Shown here in pieces: positions 12,831 through 38,477 of a stretch of DNA of 64,000 nt. Both the position numbers and the translations under genes were made by a program. The DNA is taken from the sequence record PP418986.1, one strand, 5' to 3'. Within the stretch, counting starts at the first letter, position 1, and each line of letters starts with the position of its first letter. Source of the stretch: Escherichia phage UPWr_E2. The notes below the pieces were generated by a model. That model was not told the DNA's origin, did not search any database, and saw only the letters and a program-made list of their open reading frames with translations.

Positions 12831-13217
12831 ATGGAAATCGGCAAAAAATACGAGTTAAATCCACACCGTATTAAATCTTTCATTGATATTAGTTCATCAA
12901 ATGCTAATATGGTCGGCATCATTCAAGAAAATGGTGGTTGGTTTGAAGTTAAATCAATATCAAGTTTAGATGGCTTTGATTATGTAACCGAAATCATTTG
13001 TGCTAATGGTGAAATCTATAATGATGATGGTATGGGTGATGATTATTTTGAACTTAGTGAAGAAGAGTTTTATTGTTTCCGCGAATATAAAGAACCGACT
13101 TCTGAAGAAGATGAAGTCAAAGACAAGGTTTCTGGCGTAACAAAAATTCACTGCATTGTTGACGAAAACAATGTAGATGAAATCATTGAACTTTTGCGAA
13201 AAACTTTCAAAAAGTAG
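12831..13217 (+). CDS. hypothetical acidic protein (128 aa)
   Basis: SD gagga 8 nt upstream of ATG 12831; ATG 12816 lies inside the SD. Confidence 0.6.
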   Translation: MEIGKKYELNPHRIKSFIDISSSNANMVGIIQENGGWFEVKSISSLDGFDYVTEIICANGEIYNDDGMGDDYFELSEEEFYCFREYKEPTSEEDEVKDKVSGVTKIHCIVDENNVDEIIELLRKTFKK

Positions 13218-22167: not shown

Positions 22168-22221
22168 GTTTACAAGTCCCTCGTGTTGTGTTATAGTAGT
22201 CTTACTGACATAACATGAGGA
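22168..22221 (+). promoter_or_regulatory. early promoter/leader cassette, copy 1 of an identical 54-bp repeat
   Basis: gtttac -35, tatagt -10, SD gagga; identical to 38098-38151. Confidence 0.55.
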
Positions 22222-22228
22222 CTTTATG

Positions 22229-22732
22229 ATGGATTTGCAGCTTATTACTACTGAAATGGTCGTTGAAGCATACGGTGATACTACAGATGGGATTTCTGTA
22301 TTTAAAGGAAATCGTCGAGTTGGATATATCACCGATCTTAAGAAAGATTTAGCTAAGCAAGTCAAGCGGAAAACGACCATTAAAGAATATCGAAATCGTC
22401 GTCTTGAGCAAGCCCGTGATATGCTTCCTGATGCGGTTGAGGAGATGAAAGTCTTTTTAGAAAATCAGCTTGCGAAATATGATTGCGATGTGTTCATTAA
22501 TCAGACTCAACCTAATGTTCATATTAACAACTGTAAATGCTATATCATCGTTAATCCTTTAACGGGAAAACATCGTCTTGGAATTAGTAATCCAAATCGT
22601 AGCGCATCGGATATGGCAGAAGATGTTGAGGCATGCTTTAAAATTTCTAAATCTCCGGCTGAACATCATATTTTAATTAACGGTCTTTCTCAAGACGATA
22701 TTATAGAGGTTATTAAAACTTTATGCAATTAA
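22229..22732 (+). CDS. alc: Alc-like protein (shuts off transcription of cytosine-containing DNA)
   Basis: 167 aa from second ATG; position between rnlA and spanins/pseT as in T4. Confidence 0.7.
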   Translation: MDLQLITTEMVVEAYGDTTDGISVFKGNRRVGYITDLKKDLAKQVKRKTTIKEYRNRRLEQARDMLPDAVEEMKVFLENQLAKYDCDVFINQTQPNVHINNCKCYIIVNPLTGKHRLGISNPNRSASDMAEDVEACFKISKSPAEHHILINGLSQDDIIEVIKTLCN

Positions 22733-29179: not shown

Positions 29180-29209
29180 GTTTACAGTATGGTTCCTTTG
29201 TGATAGTAT
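29180..29209 (+). promoter_or_regulatory. early promoter
   Basis: -35 gtttac, 18-nt spacer, -10 tagtat preceded by tga. Confidence 0.5.
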
Positions 29210-29236
29210 TATCTTACACAAACAAAGGAGAATAAA

Positions 29237-29560
29237 ATGAAAACGATTAATCTGAACGCTGCAGTTAAAACTAAATGCTTCAATGGTAAATATGATGAAA
29301 CTATGTGGTTCTTAATGGCAGTTGAAGGTGATATTATTGAAGTAGAAACAACAGAAGGTATGGGAACAGATTTCACCTTTACAATTCAAGTTCATAATTT
29401 CTTTACTGGTTGGATTTATGAATTGAATACAGTAATCGTTGGAAAAATTGAACAAAATGAATTAGGTGAATGGTATTATGTTACAGCTCGCCAACGTGCC
29501 GAACGCTTAATTGAGAAGATGAAAAAGTTGGTAAACTTGACATGCAGCATTGGAAAGTAG
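29237..29560 (+). CDS. hypothetical protein (107 aa)
   Basis: SD aaggag upstream. Confidence 0.55.
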   Translation: MKTINLNAAVKTKCFNGKYDETMWFLMAVEGDIIEVETTEGMGTDFTFTIQVHNFFTGWIYELNTVIVGKIEQNELGEWYYVTARQRAERLIEKMKKLVNLTCSIGK

Positions 29561-33979: not shown

Positions 33980-36037
33980 ATGATGGAACTTATTACAGAA
34001 TTATTTGACGAAGATACTACTCTTCCGATTACAAACTTAAATCCAAAGAAGAAAATACCGCAAATTTTTTCAGTTCATGTTGATGATGCAATTGAACAAC
34101 CAGGCTTTCGTTTATGTACCTATACATCTGGAGGTGATACTAATCGCGATTTAAAAATGGGCGATAAAATGATGCATATTGTTCCTTTTACATTAACTGC
34201 TAAAGGTTCAATTGCTAAATTAAAAGGTCTTGGTCCAAGCCCAATTAATTATATCAATTCAGTTTTTACTGTTGCAATGCAAACAATGCGTCAGTATAAA
34301 ATTGATGCTTGTATGCTTCGTATTCTTAAGTCTAAAACCGCTGGTCAAGCTCGACAAATTCAAGTTATTGCTGATAGACTTATCCGTAGTCGTTCAGGTG
34401 GCAGATACGTCCTTCTTAAGGAACTCTGGGATTACGATAAAAAGTATGCATATATTCTTATACATCGCAAAAATGTATCACTAGAAGACATTCCGGGAGT
34501 TCCGGAAATTAGTACTGAGCTCTTTACTAAAGTTGAATCGAAGGTCGGTGATGTTTATATCAATAAAGATACTGGAGCTCAAGTAACTAAAAATGAGGCA
34601 ATTGCAGCATCTATTGCGCAAGAAAATGATAAACGTTCTGACCAAGCTGTAATCGTTAAAGTTAAAATTTCCCGTAGAGCAATTGCGCAAAGTCAATCAT
34701 TGGAATCTTCTAGATTTGAAACGCCGATGTTTCAAAAATTTGAGGCTTCAGCAGCAGAATTAAATAAACCTGCTGACGCTCCTTTAATTTCTGACGCTAA
34801 TGAATTAACTGTTATTTCTACTTCAGGATTTGCATTAGAGAATGCTCTTAGTAGTGTTACAGCTGGAATGGCATTCAGAGAAGCTTCTATAATTCCTGAA
34901 GATAAAGAATCTGATGTTAATGCAGAAATAAAAAATAAAGCTTTAGAAAGATTACGAAAAGAATCTATTACTTCAATAAAAACTTTAGAAACTATTGCTT
35001 CTATAGTTGATGATACTTTAGAAAAATATAAAGGTGCTTGGTTAGAAAGAAACATTAACAAGCATTCGCATTTAAATCAAGATGCTGCGAATGAGTTAGT
35101 ACAAAATTCTTGGAATGCAATAAAAACAAAGATTATTCGAAGAGAATTGCGTGGATATGCTCTTACCGCTGGATGGTCACTACATCCTATAGTCGAAAAT
35201 AAAGATTCATCTAAATACACACCGGCACAAAAACGCGGAATTCGTGAATACGTAAGTTCAGGATATGTAGACATAAATAACGCTCTTTTGGGATTATATA
35301 ATCCAGATGAGCGTACAAGTATTTTGACAGCATCTGATATAGAAAAAGCTATTGATAATTTAGATTCTGCCTTTAAAAATGGTGAACGATTACCAAAAGG
35401 TATTACTTTGTATCGTTCACAACGAATGTTACCTTCAATATATGAAGCACTGGTAAAAAATCGAGTTTTTTATTTTAGAAATTTTGTGTCAACATCATTA
35501 TATCCAAATATTTTTGGTACCTGGATGACTGATTCATCTGTGGGTGTTTTACCAGACGAAAAGCGTTTAAGTGTTTCTATTGATAAAACTGATGAAGGAC
35601 TAGTAAATTCTAGCGATAATTTAGTTGGAATTGGATGGGTTATTACTGGGGCTGATAAAGTCAATGTTGTTTTACCAGGTGGAAGTTTAGCACCTTCAAA
35701 TGAAATGGAAGTCATTTTGCCACGTGGATTAATGGTCAAAGTTAATAAAATAACCGATGCATCTTACAATGATGGAACAGTTAAAACTAACAACAAGCTT
35801 ATTCAAGCTGAAGTTATGACCACAGAAGAACTCACCGAATCGGTAATTTATGACGGTGACCGTCTAATGGAAACCGGCGAAGTAGTTACAATGACAGGTG
35901 ATATTGAAATAGAAGACAGAGTTGATTTTGCATCATTTGTTTCATCAAATGTTAAACAGAAAGTAGAATCATCTCTTGGAATTATTGCGTCTTGTATAGA
36001 TATTGCAAACATGCCTTACAAGTTCGTTCAAGGATAA
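33980..36037 (+). CDS. alt: Alt-like mono-ADP-ribosyltransferase, paralog A
   Basis: 685 aa; Arg (TLYRSQR), STS (FVSTSL) and ExE (EMEVILPRG) ART motifs; N-terminus MELITELFD. Confidence 0.8.
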   Translation: MMELITELFDEDTTLPITNLNPKKKIPQIFSVHVDDAIEQPGFRLCTYTSGGDTNRDLKMGDKMMHIVPFTLTAKGSIAKLKGLGPSPINYINSVFTVAMQTMRQYKIDACMLRILKSKTAGQARQIQVIADRLIRSRSGGRYVLLKELWDYDKKYAYILIHRKNVSLEDIPGVPEISTELFTKVESKVGDVYINKDTGAQVTKNEAIAASIAQENDKRSDQAVIVKVKISRRAIAQSQSLESSRFETPMFQKFEASAAELNKPADAPLISDANELTVISTSGFALENALSSVTAGMAFREASIIPEDKESDVNAEIKNKALERLRKESITSIKTLETIASIVDDTLEKYKGAWLERNINKHSHLNQDAANELVQNSWNAIKTKIIRRELRGYALTAGWSLHPIVENKDSSKYTPAQKRGIREYVSSGYVDINNALLGLYNPDERTSILTASDIEKAIDNLDSAFKNGERLPKGITLYRSQRMLPSIYEALVKNRVFYFRNFVSTSLYPNIFGTWMTDSSVGVLPDEKRLSVSIDKTDEGLVNSSDNLVGIGWVITGADKVNVVLPGGSLAPSNEMEVILPRGLMVKVNKITDASYNDGTVKTNNKLIQAEVMTTEELTESVIYDGDRLMETGEVVTMTGDIEIEDRVDFASFVSSNVKQKVESSLGIIASCIDIANMPYKFVQG

Positions 36038-36040
36038 ATC

Positions 36041-38098
36041 ATGGAACTTATTACAGAATTATTTGACGGCGCTTCGGCGCCGGTTGTTAACTTAAATCCT
36101 AAGCATAAAATACCACAAATTTTTGCTATTCAAGCCGGCGAAGAAAGCGTGCTTCCTGGATTTAGATTTTGTACATACACCTCTGGTGGTGATACGAATA
36201 AAAACGTTAAGCCAGGCGATAAAATGATGCATATCGTAATGATAGGTGTTAATGAGAAACTATCATTAGTTAAGCTTAAAAACTTGGGTGGAAATCCAAT
36301 TGGTGTCATTAATGCCGTTTTTGATACTGCTCTTCAAACAATGAAACAGTATAAAATCGACGCATGCCTATTCCGCGTACTAAAAAGTAAAACAAATGGC
36401 GCTGCTCGTCAAATGCAAGTTATTGCTGACCGTTTAGTACGTACTAAAGGAGCAGGTCGATATGTTCTTTTAAAGGAAATCTGGGACTATGATAAAAAGT
36501 ATGCATATATTATGGTTTACCGTAAAAATGCCAATTTAGAAGACATTCCAGGTGTACCTCCTATTTCAACCGAGTTATTCACAAAAGTTGAATCGAAGGT
36601 CGGTGATGTTTATGTAGATGTTAAAACAGGTAATGCTGTTCCTAAAGCTGTCGCTGTTGCTGCTTCTATTGCTTTAGAAAATGATAAGCGCACGGATCAA
36701 GCGGTTATTCAAAAAACTAAAATTAGTCGTCGATTAGCAGCACAAGCTCAATATTCTACTGTTGATGCTTCACTTCAGGGTGATAGCTTCGCTGCTAAGA
36801 AATATCAAGAGTTTGAATCTAAAGTTCCGGTGTATAAAGCAGAAGGACCAATGAACTCTGGCGTTATTCAAATTGGTTCAAACTTCAGCAAAGGAGCTAT
36901 AGGCGGTATGAGAAGCGCTTCTCGTTTTAAATCTAGTGATTATGAACTCGAAAGCTTCCGAAATCATATTGCATTAGCCCATGCACGTTTACGTGATCCA
37001 TCTATCAAGTTACAGAGCGATATAACATATCAAGGTTCTCAAGAATATTTAAAGAATAAAGAATTCTTTGATTATAAGACTGATAAAATTTTAAGCGATC
37101 TTGCTGATATTAATATTTCTAATAGCTTTGATGTTATTAAGAAAATTATCAATGATTTGGTTAAAGGTTCTAAAGCTACGCCAGATGAAAAGACAGCTAT
37201 TATTCAATTTGTCATGAATGGCATTTATAAATTGATTAATGAATCTGCTGCTCAGGCATATGAATACGCAAGCACTGAAGTAACTCCAAAAGGATTAACT
37301 CAAGCTGAATCTGATGTAATTGAAGATTATTGTGCAGATTCATATGTTGAAATGAACTCGTTCCTTTTGGGTAAACCAGATTCTACCCGTGAAGAATATA
37401 TGGAACGAGCTATTAAACATATTGAGACGCTTGATTCTGCATTCGCTAAAGGTTCAGTTCTTCCTCCAGGAACTACACTTTACCGTGGACAAGAAGTTAC
37501 CTTTAAAACTTTGCGTCATAACATTGAAAATAAAATGTTCTATTTCAAGAACTTCGTATCCACATCGCTTAAACCAAATATCTTCGGTGAGCATGGTAAA
37601 AACTATATGGCTCTAGATGATTCCGGCGCAGTATTTTCTGGTGAAGGAGAAGGTTCCGTTGATGCAGAAGATTTGATGCATATGGGTAGTCATTCTACAT
37701 ATGCTAATGAAGATGCTGAAACTAGCGTGGGTATGGTAATTAAAGGAGCTGAGCGAATCAAAGTTATCGTTCCGGGTCATTTATCAGGATTTCCGTCAGA
37801 AGCTGAAGTTATTCTACCACGTGGAATTTTACTGAAGATTAATAAAGTAAGTACTTACTTTATGAAAGAAACTGCTTATAACAAGTATCTAATCGAAGGT
37901 ACAATCGTTCCTCCTTCTGAACAATTAGAAGAATCAGTATATGATGGCGACCATCTAATGGAAACTGGTGAAGTTCGTCCAATGGCTGGATTTAATCAAT
38001 TCCTTGTAGAAGAATCAAAAGAAGAGGAAAGCGAAGTTTCTCAAATCTTAGCTTCTTTGGTTAACATCAACGGAATGTCTAAAAAGTTCAAAATGTAG
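36041..38098 (+). CDS. Alt-like mono-ADP-ribosyltransferase, paralog B
   Basis: 685 aa; TLYRGQE, FVSTSL, EAEVILPRG motifs; N-terminal ~230 aa similar to paralog A, centre divergent. Confidence 0.8.
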   Translation: MELITELFDGASAPVVNLNPKHKIPQIFAIQAGEESVLPGFRFCTYTSGGDTNKNVKPGDKMMHIVMIGVNEKLSLVKLKNLGGNPIGVINAVFDTALQTMKQYKIDACLFRVLKSKTNGAARQMQVIADRLVRTKGAGRYVLLKEIWDYDKKYAYIMVYRKNANLEDIPGVPPISTELFTKVESKVGDVYVDVKTGNAVPKAVAVAASIALENDKRTDQAVIQKTKISRRLAAQAQYSTVDASLQGDSFAAKKYQEFESKVPVYKAEGPMNSGVIQIGSNFSKGAIGGMRSASRFKSSDYELESFRNHIALAHARLRDPSIKLQSDITYQGSQEYLKNKEFFDYKTDKILSDLADINISNSFDVIKKIINDLVKGSKATPDEKTAIIQFVMNGIYKLINESAAQAYEYASTEVTPKGLTQAESDVIEDYCADSYVEMNSFLLGKPDSTREEYMERAIKHIETLDSAFAKGSVLPPGTTLYRGQEVTFKTLRHNIENKMFYFKNFVSTSLKPNIFGEHGKNYMALDDSGAVFSGEGEGSVDAEDLMHMGSHSTYANEDAETSVGMVIKGAERIKVIVPGHLSGFPSEAEVILPRGILLKINKVSTYFMKETAYNKYLIEGTIVPPSEQLEESVYDGDHLMETGEVRPMAGFNQFLVEESKEEESEVSQILASLVNINGMSKKFKM

Positions 38099-38151
38099 TT
38101 TACAAGTCCCTCGTGTTGTGTTATAGTAGTCTTACTGACATAACATGAGGA
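38098..38151 (+). promoter_or_regulatory. early promoter/leader cassette, copy 2 of the identical 54-bp repeat
   Basis: identical to 22168-22221. Confidence 0.55.
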
Positions 38152-38158
38152 ACACAAA

Positions 38159-38449
38159 ATGAAATCTTCTTTGCGCTTTTTAGGTCAAGAACTTGTAGTT
38201 GAAGGAGTTATTCCTGCTGATAATGCTTTTAATGAAGCAGTTTACGATGAATTTATCAAAATTTTTGGAACAGATAAAAAGTTCGGAATTTTTCCTTCTG
38301 AAAATTTTTCAAAGCCAGAACAGACTGAAAGTATTTTCCAAGGTGTAGTAACAGGTAAATTTGAGTCAGAAGCTCCGGTAAAAATTGAAGTTTATATTGA
38401 AGACAGTTTAGTTGCTTCAGTTTCTGCTTTCATTTCATTCCGTAAATAA
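38159..38449 (+). CDS. hypothetical protein (96 aa)
   Basis: SD gagga upstream. Confidence 0.55.
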   Translation: MKSSLRFLGQELVVEGVIPADNAFNEAVYDEFIKIFGTDKKFGIFPSENFSKPEQTESIFQGVVTGKFESEAPVKIEVYIEDSLVASVSAFISFRK

Positions 38450-38454
38450 AAATA

Positions 38455-38474
38455 TGGGGACCGAAAGGTCCCCA
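38455..38474. terminator. bidirectional hairpin between convergent genes
   Basis: tggggacc-gaaa-ggtcccca with T-rich flanks on both strands. Confidence 0.6.
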
Positions 38475-38477
38475 TTG

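Follow-up and report, generated by a model that had tools for sequence, protein, structure and literature searches.

A 54-bp early-promoter cassette repeated ahead of alc and alt.-3 in Tequatrovirus: a predicted promoter-in-hairpin unit that may restrict expression to its own promoter

Two copies of a 54-bp element precede alc and alt.-3

The stretch of Escherichia phage UPWr_E2 DNA analysed here (64 kb, referred to below as the window) is Tequatrovirus sequence and carries two copies of a 54-bp element. Copy 1 (22168 to 22221, + strand) lies in the intergenic region between rnlA (gp63) and alc, the latter encoding the inhibitor of host transcription (22226 to 22732, + strand; the T4 annotation uses the second ATG, at 22229). 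This gene context is taken from T4 and its relatives. Copy 2 (38098 to 38151, + strand) begins with the G of the TAG stop codon of the second alt paralogue (36041 to 38098) and is located upstream of alt.-3, an ORF of 96 aa (38159 to 38449, + strand), which is non-essential in T4 (PMC11618068). The rnlA TAA stop codon is found 4 nt upstream of copy 1, and the TAG of the second alt gene (altB) overlaps the first base of copy 2. The two alt (ADP-ribosyltransferase) paralogues are both full-length (685 aa), are arranged in tandem (33980 to 36037 and 36041 to 38098) with about 41% identity, and share short blocks of conserved DNA, belonging to repeat families D10 and D15, at the 5' end and close to the 3' end.

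A first-pass annotation made from the letters of the window had described two identical direct copies about 16 kb apart, followed by alc and by a 96-aa ORF at 38159. The comparison of the two loci confirmed this description: the copies are identical at 54 of 54 bases, in direct orientation and 15,930 bp apart, and the 96-aa ORF is alt.-3. The edges of the repeat are sharp, with no further matching base to the left or right of the 54 bp. Eight early promoters of the GTTTAC type are present on the shown strand of the window, and since the other six match the cassette at only 17 to 30 of the 54 positions, the identity of the two copies goes far beyond promoter consensus or chance.

A search for further copies found the 54-mer at 997 places in 499 phage records, T4 included, which amounts to two per genome. 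In T4 (NC_000866), the alc copy is the same as the window cassette and the alt.-3 copy differs by one base. The same annotation had mentioned an assembly error as a possible source of the repeat; because the 499 records, among them T4, carry two places each, the repeat is genuine and not a misassembly. The regions flanking both copies are 100% identical to Yersinia phage PYps55T. On this sequence evidence, the repeat is a genus-wide feature of Tequatrovirus and no assembly artefact.

A further repeat of a different kind is found in gene 37, the long-tail-fibre distal subunit gene (minus-strand ORF, 734 to 2833), where a perfect tandem duplication of 349 bp was detected (387-686 and 736-1035; 300 nt reported, at 100% identity). 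The closest relatives match a 771-nt stretch of this region at 100% over 422 nt only, and they therefore have one copy of the duplicated segment. A length of 349 bp is not divisible by 3, so gp37 would be truncated by the duplication, which is either genuine and frameshifting or a product of the assembly.

Early promoter and leader

Both copies contain a predicted early promoter. In copy 1 (22169 to 22197, + strand), the -35 element TTTACA (22169-22174) is followed by a 17-nt spacer, with the TGn motif at 22189-22191 and the -10 element TATAGT at 22192-22197. In copy 2 (38099 to 38127, + strand), the -35 and -10 elements are located at 38099-38104 and 38122-38127, respectively. The sigma-70 scan identified TTTACA-17-TGn-TATAGT in both copies, which agrees with the consensus at 10 of 12 positions, plus the TG. 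The transcription start, placed by the rule of thumb of 7 nt after the -10, would be A22204 in copy 1 and A38134 in copy 2, corresponding to position 37 of the cassette. The SD sequence GAGGA is found at 22217-22221 (copy 1) and 38147-38151 (copy 2), 4 to 7 nt ahead of the ATG. A cleavage site for RegB (GGAG) was also considered in the leader and was rejected, as the Tequatrovirus leader reads GAGGA and contains no GGAG.

The -35, the TG-extended -10 and the SD, all named in the first-pass annotation, are thus present at both copies. Its description of the repeat as a promoter, leader and SD cassette is supported by the sigma-70 match and by the time-resolved omics of T4, in which alc and alt.-3 belong to the early class for both RNA and protein (PMC9697503 supplement). 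The genes just upstream of copy 2, alt, alt.-1 and alt.-2, give middle RNA in the same data set. An active early promoter at copy 2 would predict just such a change of RNA class in T4 between alt.-2 (middle) and alt.-3 (early). The promoter and leader part of the annotation therefore stands; it was incomplete in that the inverted repeat and the RNA hairpin encoded by it had been overlooked.

A predicted RNA hairpin of the cassette includes the SD

The 54-mer is an imperfect inverted repeat, and its sense RNA is predicted to fold into an 18-bp hairpin. The MFE is -24.4 kcal/mol for copy 1 (z -5.4, with 0 of 200 shuffles as good) and -23.0 kcal/mol for copy 2 (z -4.4). In copy 1, the 5' arm (22179 to 22198, + strand; cassette positions 12-31) comprises the promoter spacer and the -10, and the 3' arm (22203 to 22220, + strand; cassette positions 36-53) comprises the 5'-UTR including GAGG of the SD, the loop being at 22199-22202. 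In copy 2, the whole hairpin extends from 38109 to 38150 (+ strand), with the 5' arm at 38109-38128, the loop at 38129-38132 and the 3' arm at 38133-38150. Cassette positions 12-25 pair with 53-40 and, after a bulge at 26-27, positions 28-31 pair with 39-36, leaving a loop of positions 32-35. The -10 (positions 25-30) falls within the 5' arm, and CCUC (positions 12-15) pairs with the SD bases GAGG (positions 50-53). The exact length of the cassette is accounted for by this hairpin, because it pairs the promoter spacer and the -10 with the leader and the SD. The antisense strand folds at -15.4 and -17.2 kcal/mol, which is 6-9 kcal/mol worse than the sense strand because three of the pairs are G-U; this argues for a structure of the sense-strand RNA rather than for a symmetric DNA site. 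A search of the cassette against Rfam returned no family, the sole match being a sub-threshold snoRNA.

The predicted start (position 37) is located inside the hairpin and beyond the entire 5' arm. RNA beginning at this start has no significant structure (z 0.2 and 0.9). For alc, the cost of opening the region from SD to AUG was calculated as 16.5 kcal/mol in read-through RNA versus 4.0 kcal/mol in own-promoter RNA, and for alt.-3 as 13.7 versus 4.6 kcal/mol. Among the six other early promoters in the window, only the one at 29180 shows a difference of more than 1.7 kcal/mol between the two RNA forms.

This latter promoter (29180-29239) precedes a 107-aa ORF (29237-29560, 30.8-like) and has the design of the alc cassette in an unrelated sequence, which makes it the third such early promoter in the window. 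Its spacer sequence TCCTTTG pairs with its own SD, CAAAGGA, and opening of SD to AUG would require 10.3 kcal/mol in read-through RNA versus 0.5 kcal/mol in own-promoter RNA. The early promoters at 13217, 25488 and 29571 also have strong hairpins (z -3.7, -3.9 and -4.8, respectively), in which the spacer pairs with the start-site region and the SD is free. From these folds, promoter-spanning stem-loops appear to be general among the early promoters here, and SD masking appears to be a special case.

Relation to PeSLs

The promoter-stop-start modules of T4-type phages, among which the first-pass annotation had placed the repeat, are described as PeSLs (promoter-early stem-loop cassettes), and the cassette fits this class in its early promoter, its stem-loop and its SD with start codon (Arbiol 2010, PMC2839356; Comeau 2014, PMC4122927). 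The cassette promoter matches the PST/T4 PeSL consensus TTTACW..N17..TAYWAT at 11 of 12 positions. A hairpin of -23 to -24 kcal/mol extends over the spacer, the -10 and the leader, and at both copies a stop codon of the upstream gene is found at the 5' end and an SD with a start codon at the 3' end. PeSLs and the cassette have in common the upstream stop, a sigma-70-like early promoter, a G-T-containing stem-loop over the -10, the SD and the start codon, and both are found in front of small non-essential genes. Five stem-loop subclasses have been published, one of which overlaps the -10 (PMC2839356). Upstream of the -35, where the stem-loop is drawn for the PST PeSLs, only weak structures were found at the two copies (z -1.7 and -0.5).

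The cassette differs from PeSLs in several respects. PeSLs are numerous in a genome and share a consensus only, whereas the cassette consists of two distant copies that are identical or nearly so. The genes that follow the two copies, alc and alt.-3, were neither gained nor lost in the genomes seen; most of altB, just upstream of copy 2, is missing in T4. PeSLs have been proposed to be sites of homologous exchange, and their stem-loop to be a terminator or attenuator (PMC2839356, PMC4122927). Masking of the SD was not proposed in these papers, whereas it is the predicted effect of the cassette hairpin.

The alc leader in other genera

The same layout was found ahead of alc elsewhere, in the order GTTTACA, anti-SD arm in the spacer, -10, start-site loop and SD arm. 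The promoter-in-hairpin design is present upstream of alc in about 11 genus-level lineages; the sequences of the arms vary, and their complementarity and the inclusion of the SD are kept. The comparison across genera consists of folds of each lineage with shuffle controls, as a MAFFT alignment of the alc leaders misplaced the SD arms and was left out of the pair counting. The 5' and 3' arms are TCTCCTCAT and ATGAGGAGA in Dhakavirus (-17.6 kcal/mol, z -3.8), TCCTCATTTTGTTG and CAACAAAATGAGGA in Kagamiyamavirus EcS1 (-19.5 kcal/mol, z -5.6), TCCTCATTTCGTT and AACGAAATGAGGA in Winklervirus CHI14 (-25.4 kcal/mol, z -5.7), and CCCCGTTTGGTTG and CAACCAAACGGAG in Gelderlandvirus CGG4-1 (-18.7 kcal/mol, z -4.5). 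They are TCTCCATTTGGTT and AACCAAATGGAGA in Karamvirus (-24.2 kcal/mol, z -6.4), TCCTCATCAG and CTGATGAGGA in Jiaodavirus (-22.6 kcal/mol, z -5.6), and CCTCATTTGTT and AACAAATGAGG in Klebsiella phage kv_tblp8 (-20.9 kcal/mol, z -5.9). Over these seven lineages, z ranges from -3.7 to -6.4, and read-through RNA costs 8-17 kcal/mol more to open than own-promoter RNA.

In Gualtarvirus and Biquartavirus, the SD of alc is predicted to be masked by the -10 region instead, with opening differences of 12.7 and 11.2 kcal/mol, respectively, and in Mosigvirus the masking is weak. In Lazarusvirus and in one IMG/VR genome (L049), the alc leader contains a hairpin that ends short of the SD, and no masking was found. 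Another arrangement is seen in T4-like genomes of about 171 kb (L009, L011, L047, L048 and L061), in which a partial copy of the N-terminal ~55 codons of alc (~51% identity) precedes the gene and a terminator-like GGGG...CCCC hairpin stands upstream of alc in place of the GTTTAC early promoter.

The main rival to SD masking is that the hairpin is a terminator or attenuator of upstream transcription and insulates alc and alt.-3 at the level of RNA synthesis, a function that would be compatible with masking. One PeSL stem-loop reduced lacZ expression as strongly as rrnB T1 (Arbiol 2010, PMC2839356), the GenBank record of SA20RB annotates a WebGeSTer 'terminator' over copy 2, and the three early promoters of the window with strong promoter-spanning hairpins that do not touch the SD would suit such a role as well. 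Like intrinsic terminators, the cassette has a G+C-containing hairpin in an intergenic region. However, intrinsic terminators have a run of U after the stem, whereas neither cassette hairpin is followed by a U-tract and the SD of the next gene lies inside the structure. The terminator scan was empty at both copies, and near copy 2 it found only a bidirectional terminator at 38454-38475, after alt.-3. A pure terminator also has no need of an SD, yet the 3' arm of the alc hairpin includes it in the ~11 lineages despite their differing arms. We therefore regard termination as a rather unlikely explanation of the hairpin, although it is the one to be taken most seriously beside masking.

Variation of the cassette within Tequatrovirus

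Variation within the genus was followed in a small sample of 21 Tequatrovirus genomes (42 copies), which were picked one by one from GenBank phage records, partly for divergence; IMG/VR, scanned with protein 30.3 and the leader pattern, yielded only about five Tequatrovirus genomes. The two copies differ by 0 to 5 nt within these 21 genomes (0 in this window and in PP01, 1 in T4 and 5 in T6), so that perfect identity, to which the first-pass annotation had given weight, is not a property of the element. Sixteen positions of the cassette are variable and the -35 is invariant. Most variants are either located in the bulge or loop (C27, A32, A33 and T34) or preserve pairing: C15U results in a U-G pair, G16A, G40A and U44C change G-U into Watson-Crick pairs, and C42U is also of this kind. 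One copy has the compensatory pair U15-A50 (T15 and A50 in the DNA). The hairpin (-16.8 to -28.0 kcal/mol) and the predicted masking are retained in 42 of 42 copies.

The natural variants weaken the fold less than the other possible substitutions would: those of the alc copy have a median ddG of 0.01, compared with 2.04 (p=0.003), and those of the alt.-3 copy a median of 0.04, compared with 1.90 (p=0.02). The alt.-3 difference is gone when transitions only are considered (p=0.32), and the test is confounded by the overlap of the stem with the -10 and the SD, both of which are under constraints unrelated to the hairpin. Covariation within the genus was analysed over 22 distinct sequences with little variation, and 98% of the cells were paired, but 66 of 500 shuffles reached the observed value.

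That the covariation test within the genus is not significant, and that the overall divergence of Tequatrovirus is low (95-99%), could also be expected of a plain duplicated promoter in which the inverted repeat is incidental, the identity reflects a recent neutral copy or slow drift, and the unit does nothing other than initiate transcription. Such a promoter would not lead one to expect hairpins with z of -4 to -6 in many independent lineages with different arms, nor a structure that is strand-asymmetric through its G-U pairs, nor the conservation of the hairpin in every sampled copy, and we consider a plain duplication very unlikely.

Origin of the alt.-3 copy and exchange between the loci

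Outside Tequatrovirus, alt.-3 orthologues also carry an early promoter at this position, directly after the conserved ...AAAATGTAG stop. No SD-masking hairpin was found at these orthologues (z -1.4 and -0.1; opening difference of at most 2.4 kcal/mol). Masking ahead of alc in many genera, and ahead of alt.-3 in Tequatrovirus only, points to a copy from alc to alt.-3. The simplest reading is that the module originally belonged to alc and reached alt.-3 as a copy in the Tequatrovirus ancestor; we infer both the mechanism and the direction of this copy, the latter from the presence or absence of the anti-SD arm. Global sequence identity gave no decision on the ancestral outgroup promoter (42 versus 41 matches). 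The ends of the copied tract are sequences already common to both promoters, GTTTACA at the left end and (C)ATGAGGA at the right end. The two loci are syntenic and each has an early promoter in other genera, so that the promoter would have been replaced in place and no gene would have moved, and this argues against the cassette-driven gene shuffling that the first-pass annotation had suggested.

A second exchange was found in Dhakavirus VR5: the last 31 nt of its alc leader (CCTTACACAAACATGAGGAGAACATTATGAA), which run into the start codon, match the alt.-3 leader of this phage exactly, and the sister Dhakaviruses differ. The alc hairpin of VR5 is intact despite this 31-nt transfer (-19.5 kcal/mol, z -4.1). 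Judged from the sequences at hand, the tract is an independent transfer in the opposite direction, from alt.-3 to alc. Several VR5-like records also have two matching places for CCTTACACAAACATGAGGAGAACATTATGAA, which suggests a lineage-wide second case of promoter-leader homogenisation in VR5-like phages.

Shared variants were also observed within Tequatrovirus. The A29 and A32 haplotype is found at alt.-3 in 6 of the 21 sampled genomes and at alc in PP01 and UFV10, the A32 and T34 haplotype is found at alc in SA20RB and at alt.-3 in Shfl2, and the C27 and A16 variants occur at both loci. The distance between copies is slightly smaller within a genome (2.43) than between genomes (2.80; permutation p=0.03, the 21 genomes not being phylogenetically independent). 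It is thus likely, at a modest level of statistical support, that short gene conversion takes place between the alc and alt.-3 loci from time to time. This exchange would resemble the ectopic gene conversion of dispersed repeats in its shared polymorphisms, its occasional re-homogenisation and its tract ends in pre-existing microhomology, and it would differ from usual concerted evolution in that the tract is very short (31-54 bp) and represents a whole regulatory unit. The copies are best understood as kept similar by descent, by selection on structure and by occasional conversion.

Rearrangements between the copies and the altB deletion

The interval between the copies contains alc, pseT, cd, 31, rIII, the 30.x genes, 30, alt.1 and the alt genes. 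Two of them, 30 and 31, are essential in T4, and a deletion between the copies is therefore unlikely to be viable. A duplication of 16 kb would exceed the terminal redundancy of T4. These points, together with the two places per genome in 499 records, do not favour the suggestion of the first-pass annotation that the repeat is a substrate for deletion or duplication of everything between the copies. Both alc and alt.-3 were present in all genomes seen, with no gain or loss.

A deletion close to copy 2 is known from T4, which, compared with this phage, has lost about 1.7 kb of the second alt gene (altB), leaving alt.-1 and alt.-2; several relatives have lost it as well, and the window keeps the intact 685-aa second paralogue. 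The junction of this deletion is a 9-bp direct repeat, CTAAAAAGT, present at 36380-36388 and 38079-38087, and not the cassette. The downstream copy of CTAAAAAGT ends 11 nt before cassette copy 2.

It also seems very improbable that the cassette is an active recombination module, in the mini-circle or shuffling sense of PeSLs, whose main significance would be to drive deletion, duplication or gene exchange between the two loci. The exchanges that were observed are short conversions and involve no rearrangement, gene order is constant with two places per genome in the 499 records, the essential genes 30 and 31 lie inside the 16-kb interval, and the altB deletion of T4 used the other, 9-bp repeat. 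Such a module would nevertheless agree with the exchange of sequence between the loci documented by the shared haplotypes and by VR5, and the copies are of sufficient length for T4 recombination, which can use homology patches of less than 50 bp (Singer 1982, as cited in PMC2839356). In practice, the repeat is no sign of misassembly, and viable deletions through it are unlikely.

Discussion

The explanation that we find reasonably probable, on the basis of the folds and comparisons above, is that the 54-bp repeat is a complete expression cassette of the PeSL composite type that works from its own promoter only, is ancestral to alc and was copied to alt.-3. According to the computational analysis, the cassette would provide a strong T4-type early promoter for the host sigma-70 RNA polymerase, and the same DNA would encode an 18-bp RNA hairpin in which the spacer and the -10 are paired with the 5'-UTR and the SD. 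Judging from geometry and thermodynamics, mRNA from the own promoter would start at about position 37, would lack the 5' arm and would have a free ribosome-binding site. Read-through RNA from rnlA, or from the alt genes, whose products are also made late, would contain both arms, and its SD would be buried. Translation of Alc and Alt.-3 would consequently be confined almost entirely to the time when the early promoter is active. Some coupled translation could still occur if ribosomes that terminate at the upstream stops (4 nt ahead of copy 1, and overlapping copy 2) melt part of the base of the stem.

The promoter-in-hairpin would then be the ancestral control unit of alc across the Straboviridae. 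In the Tequatrovirus ancestor, this unit would have been copied by ectopic gene conversion over the pre-existing early promoter of alt.-3, 13-16 kb away, and the two copies would since have diverged by 0-5 nt, depending on the phage, and been re-homogenised from time to time. Whether Alc synthesis is under an early-only gate throughout the Straboviridae, with translation limited to immediate-early mRNA from the own promoter, and whether the whole 54-bp switch was transplanted onto the unrelated alt.-3 by micro-gene-conversion, is a joint proposition that we judge to be evenly poised.

Masking by a hairpin with an internal promoter is known from the T4 genes e, soc, 49 and I-TevI, in which the SD and/or the AUG are sequestered in upstream transcripts, whereas RNA made from a promoter at the 5' arm can be translated (Uzan & Miller 2010, PMC3014915). 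The cassette is similar to these genes in that its SD is predicted to be paired in read-through RNA and in that RNA from the internal promoter is without the 5' arm. However, e, soc, 49 and I-TevI have late promoters (TATAAATA) and their premature early translation is blocked, whereas the promoter of the cassette is of the early sigma-70 type and the timing logic would be reversed; no late promoter TATAAATA was found in the cassette. The cassette may thus work like the T4 promoter-in-hairpin masking family, as a variant rather than a member of it. There are 0 mentions of alc in the masking review (PMC3014915), and an earlier description of the alc hairpin in older sequence papers is possible.

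Least probable of the readings considered is that the inverted repeat is a DNA-level site, either the operator of a dimeric regulator or a cruciform, for promoter shut-off: its location across the spacer, the -10 and the start site is typical of repressor targets, and the shut-off of T4 early promoters is only partly explained (PMC2988021), but 3 of the 14 lower-stem pairs are G-T mismatches, the antisense fold is 6-9 kcal/mol worse, and the arm sequences vary between genera with complementarity and SD inclusion alone conserved.

The own-promoter-only cassette, if it exists as proposed, would be a combined transcription and translation timing module that can be moved between genes without moving the genes. 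It would also provide a functional reason for the stem-loops overlapping T4-type early promoters (PeSLs), which so far have been seen as terminators or recombination sites. The copy at two loci and the VR5 event indicate that very short regulatory units of 31-54 bp are exchanged between distant loci in these genomes, which has a bearing on how promoter 'repeats' are read and on the engineering of T4-like phages, for which the cassette might represent a compact and insulated early-expression part. T4 serves as the reference for timed gene expression. Should the alc cassette operate as predicted, translation of a protein directed against host transcription would be gated to the early period, the opposite of the textbook cases with late promoters.
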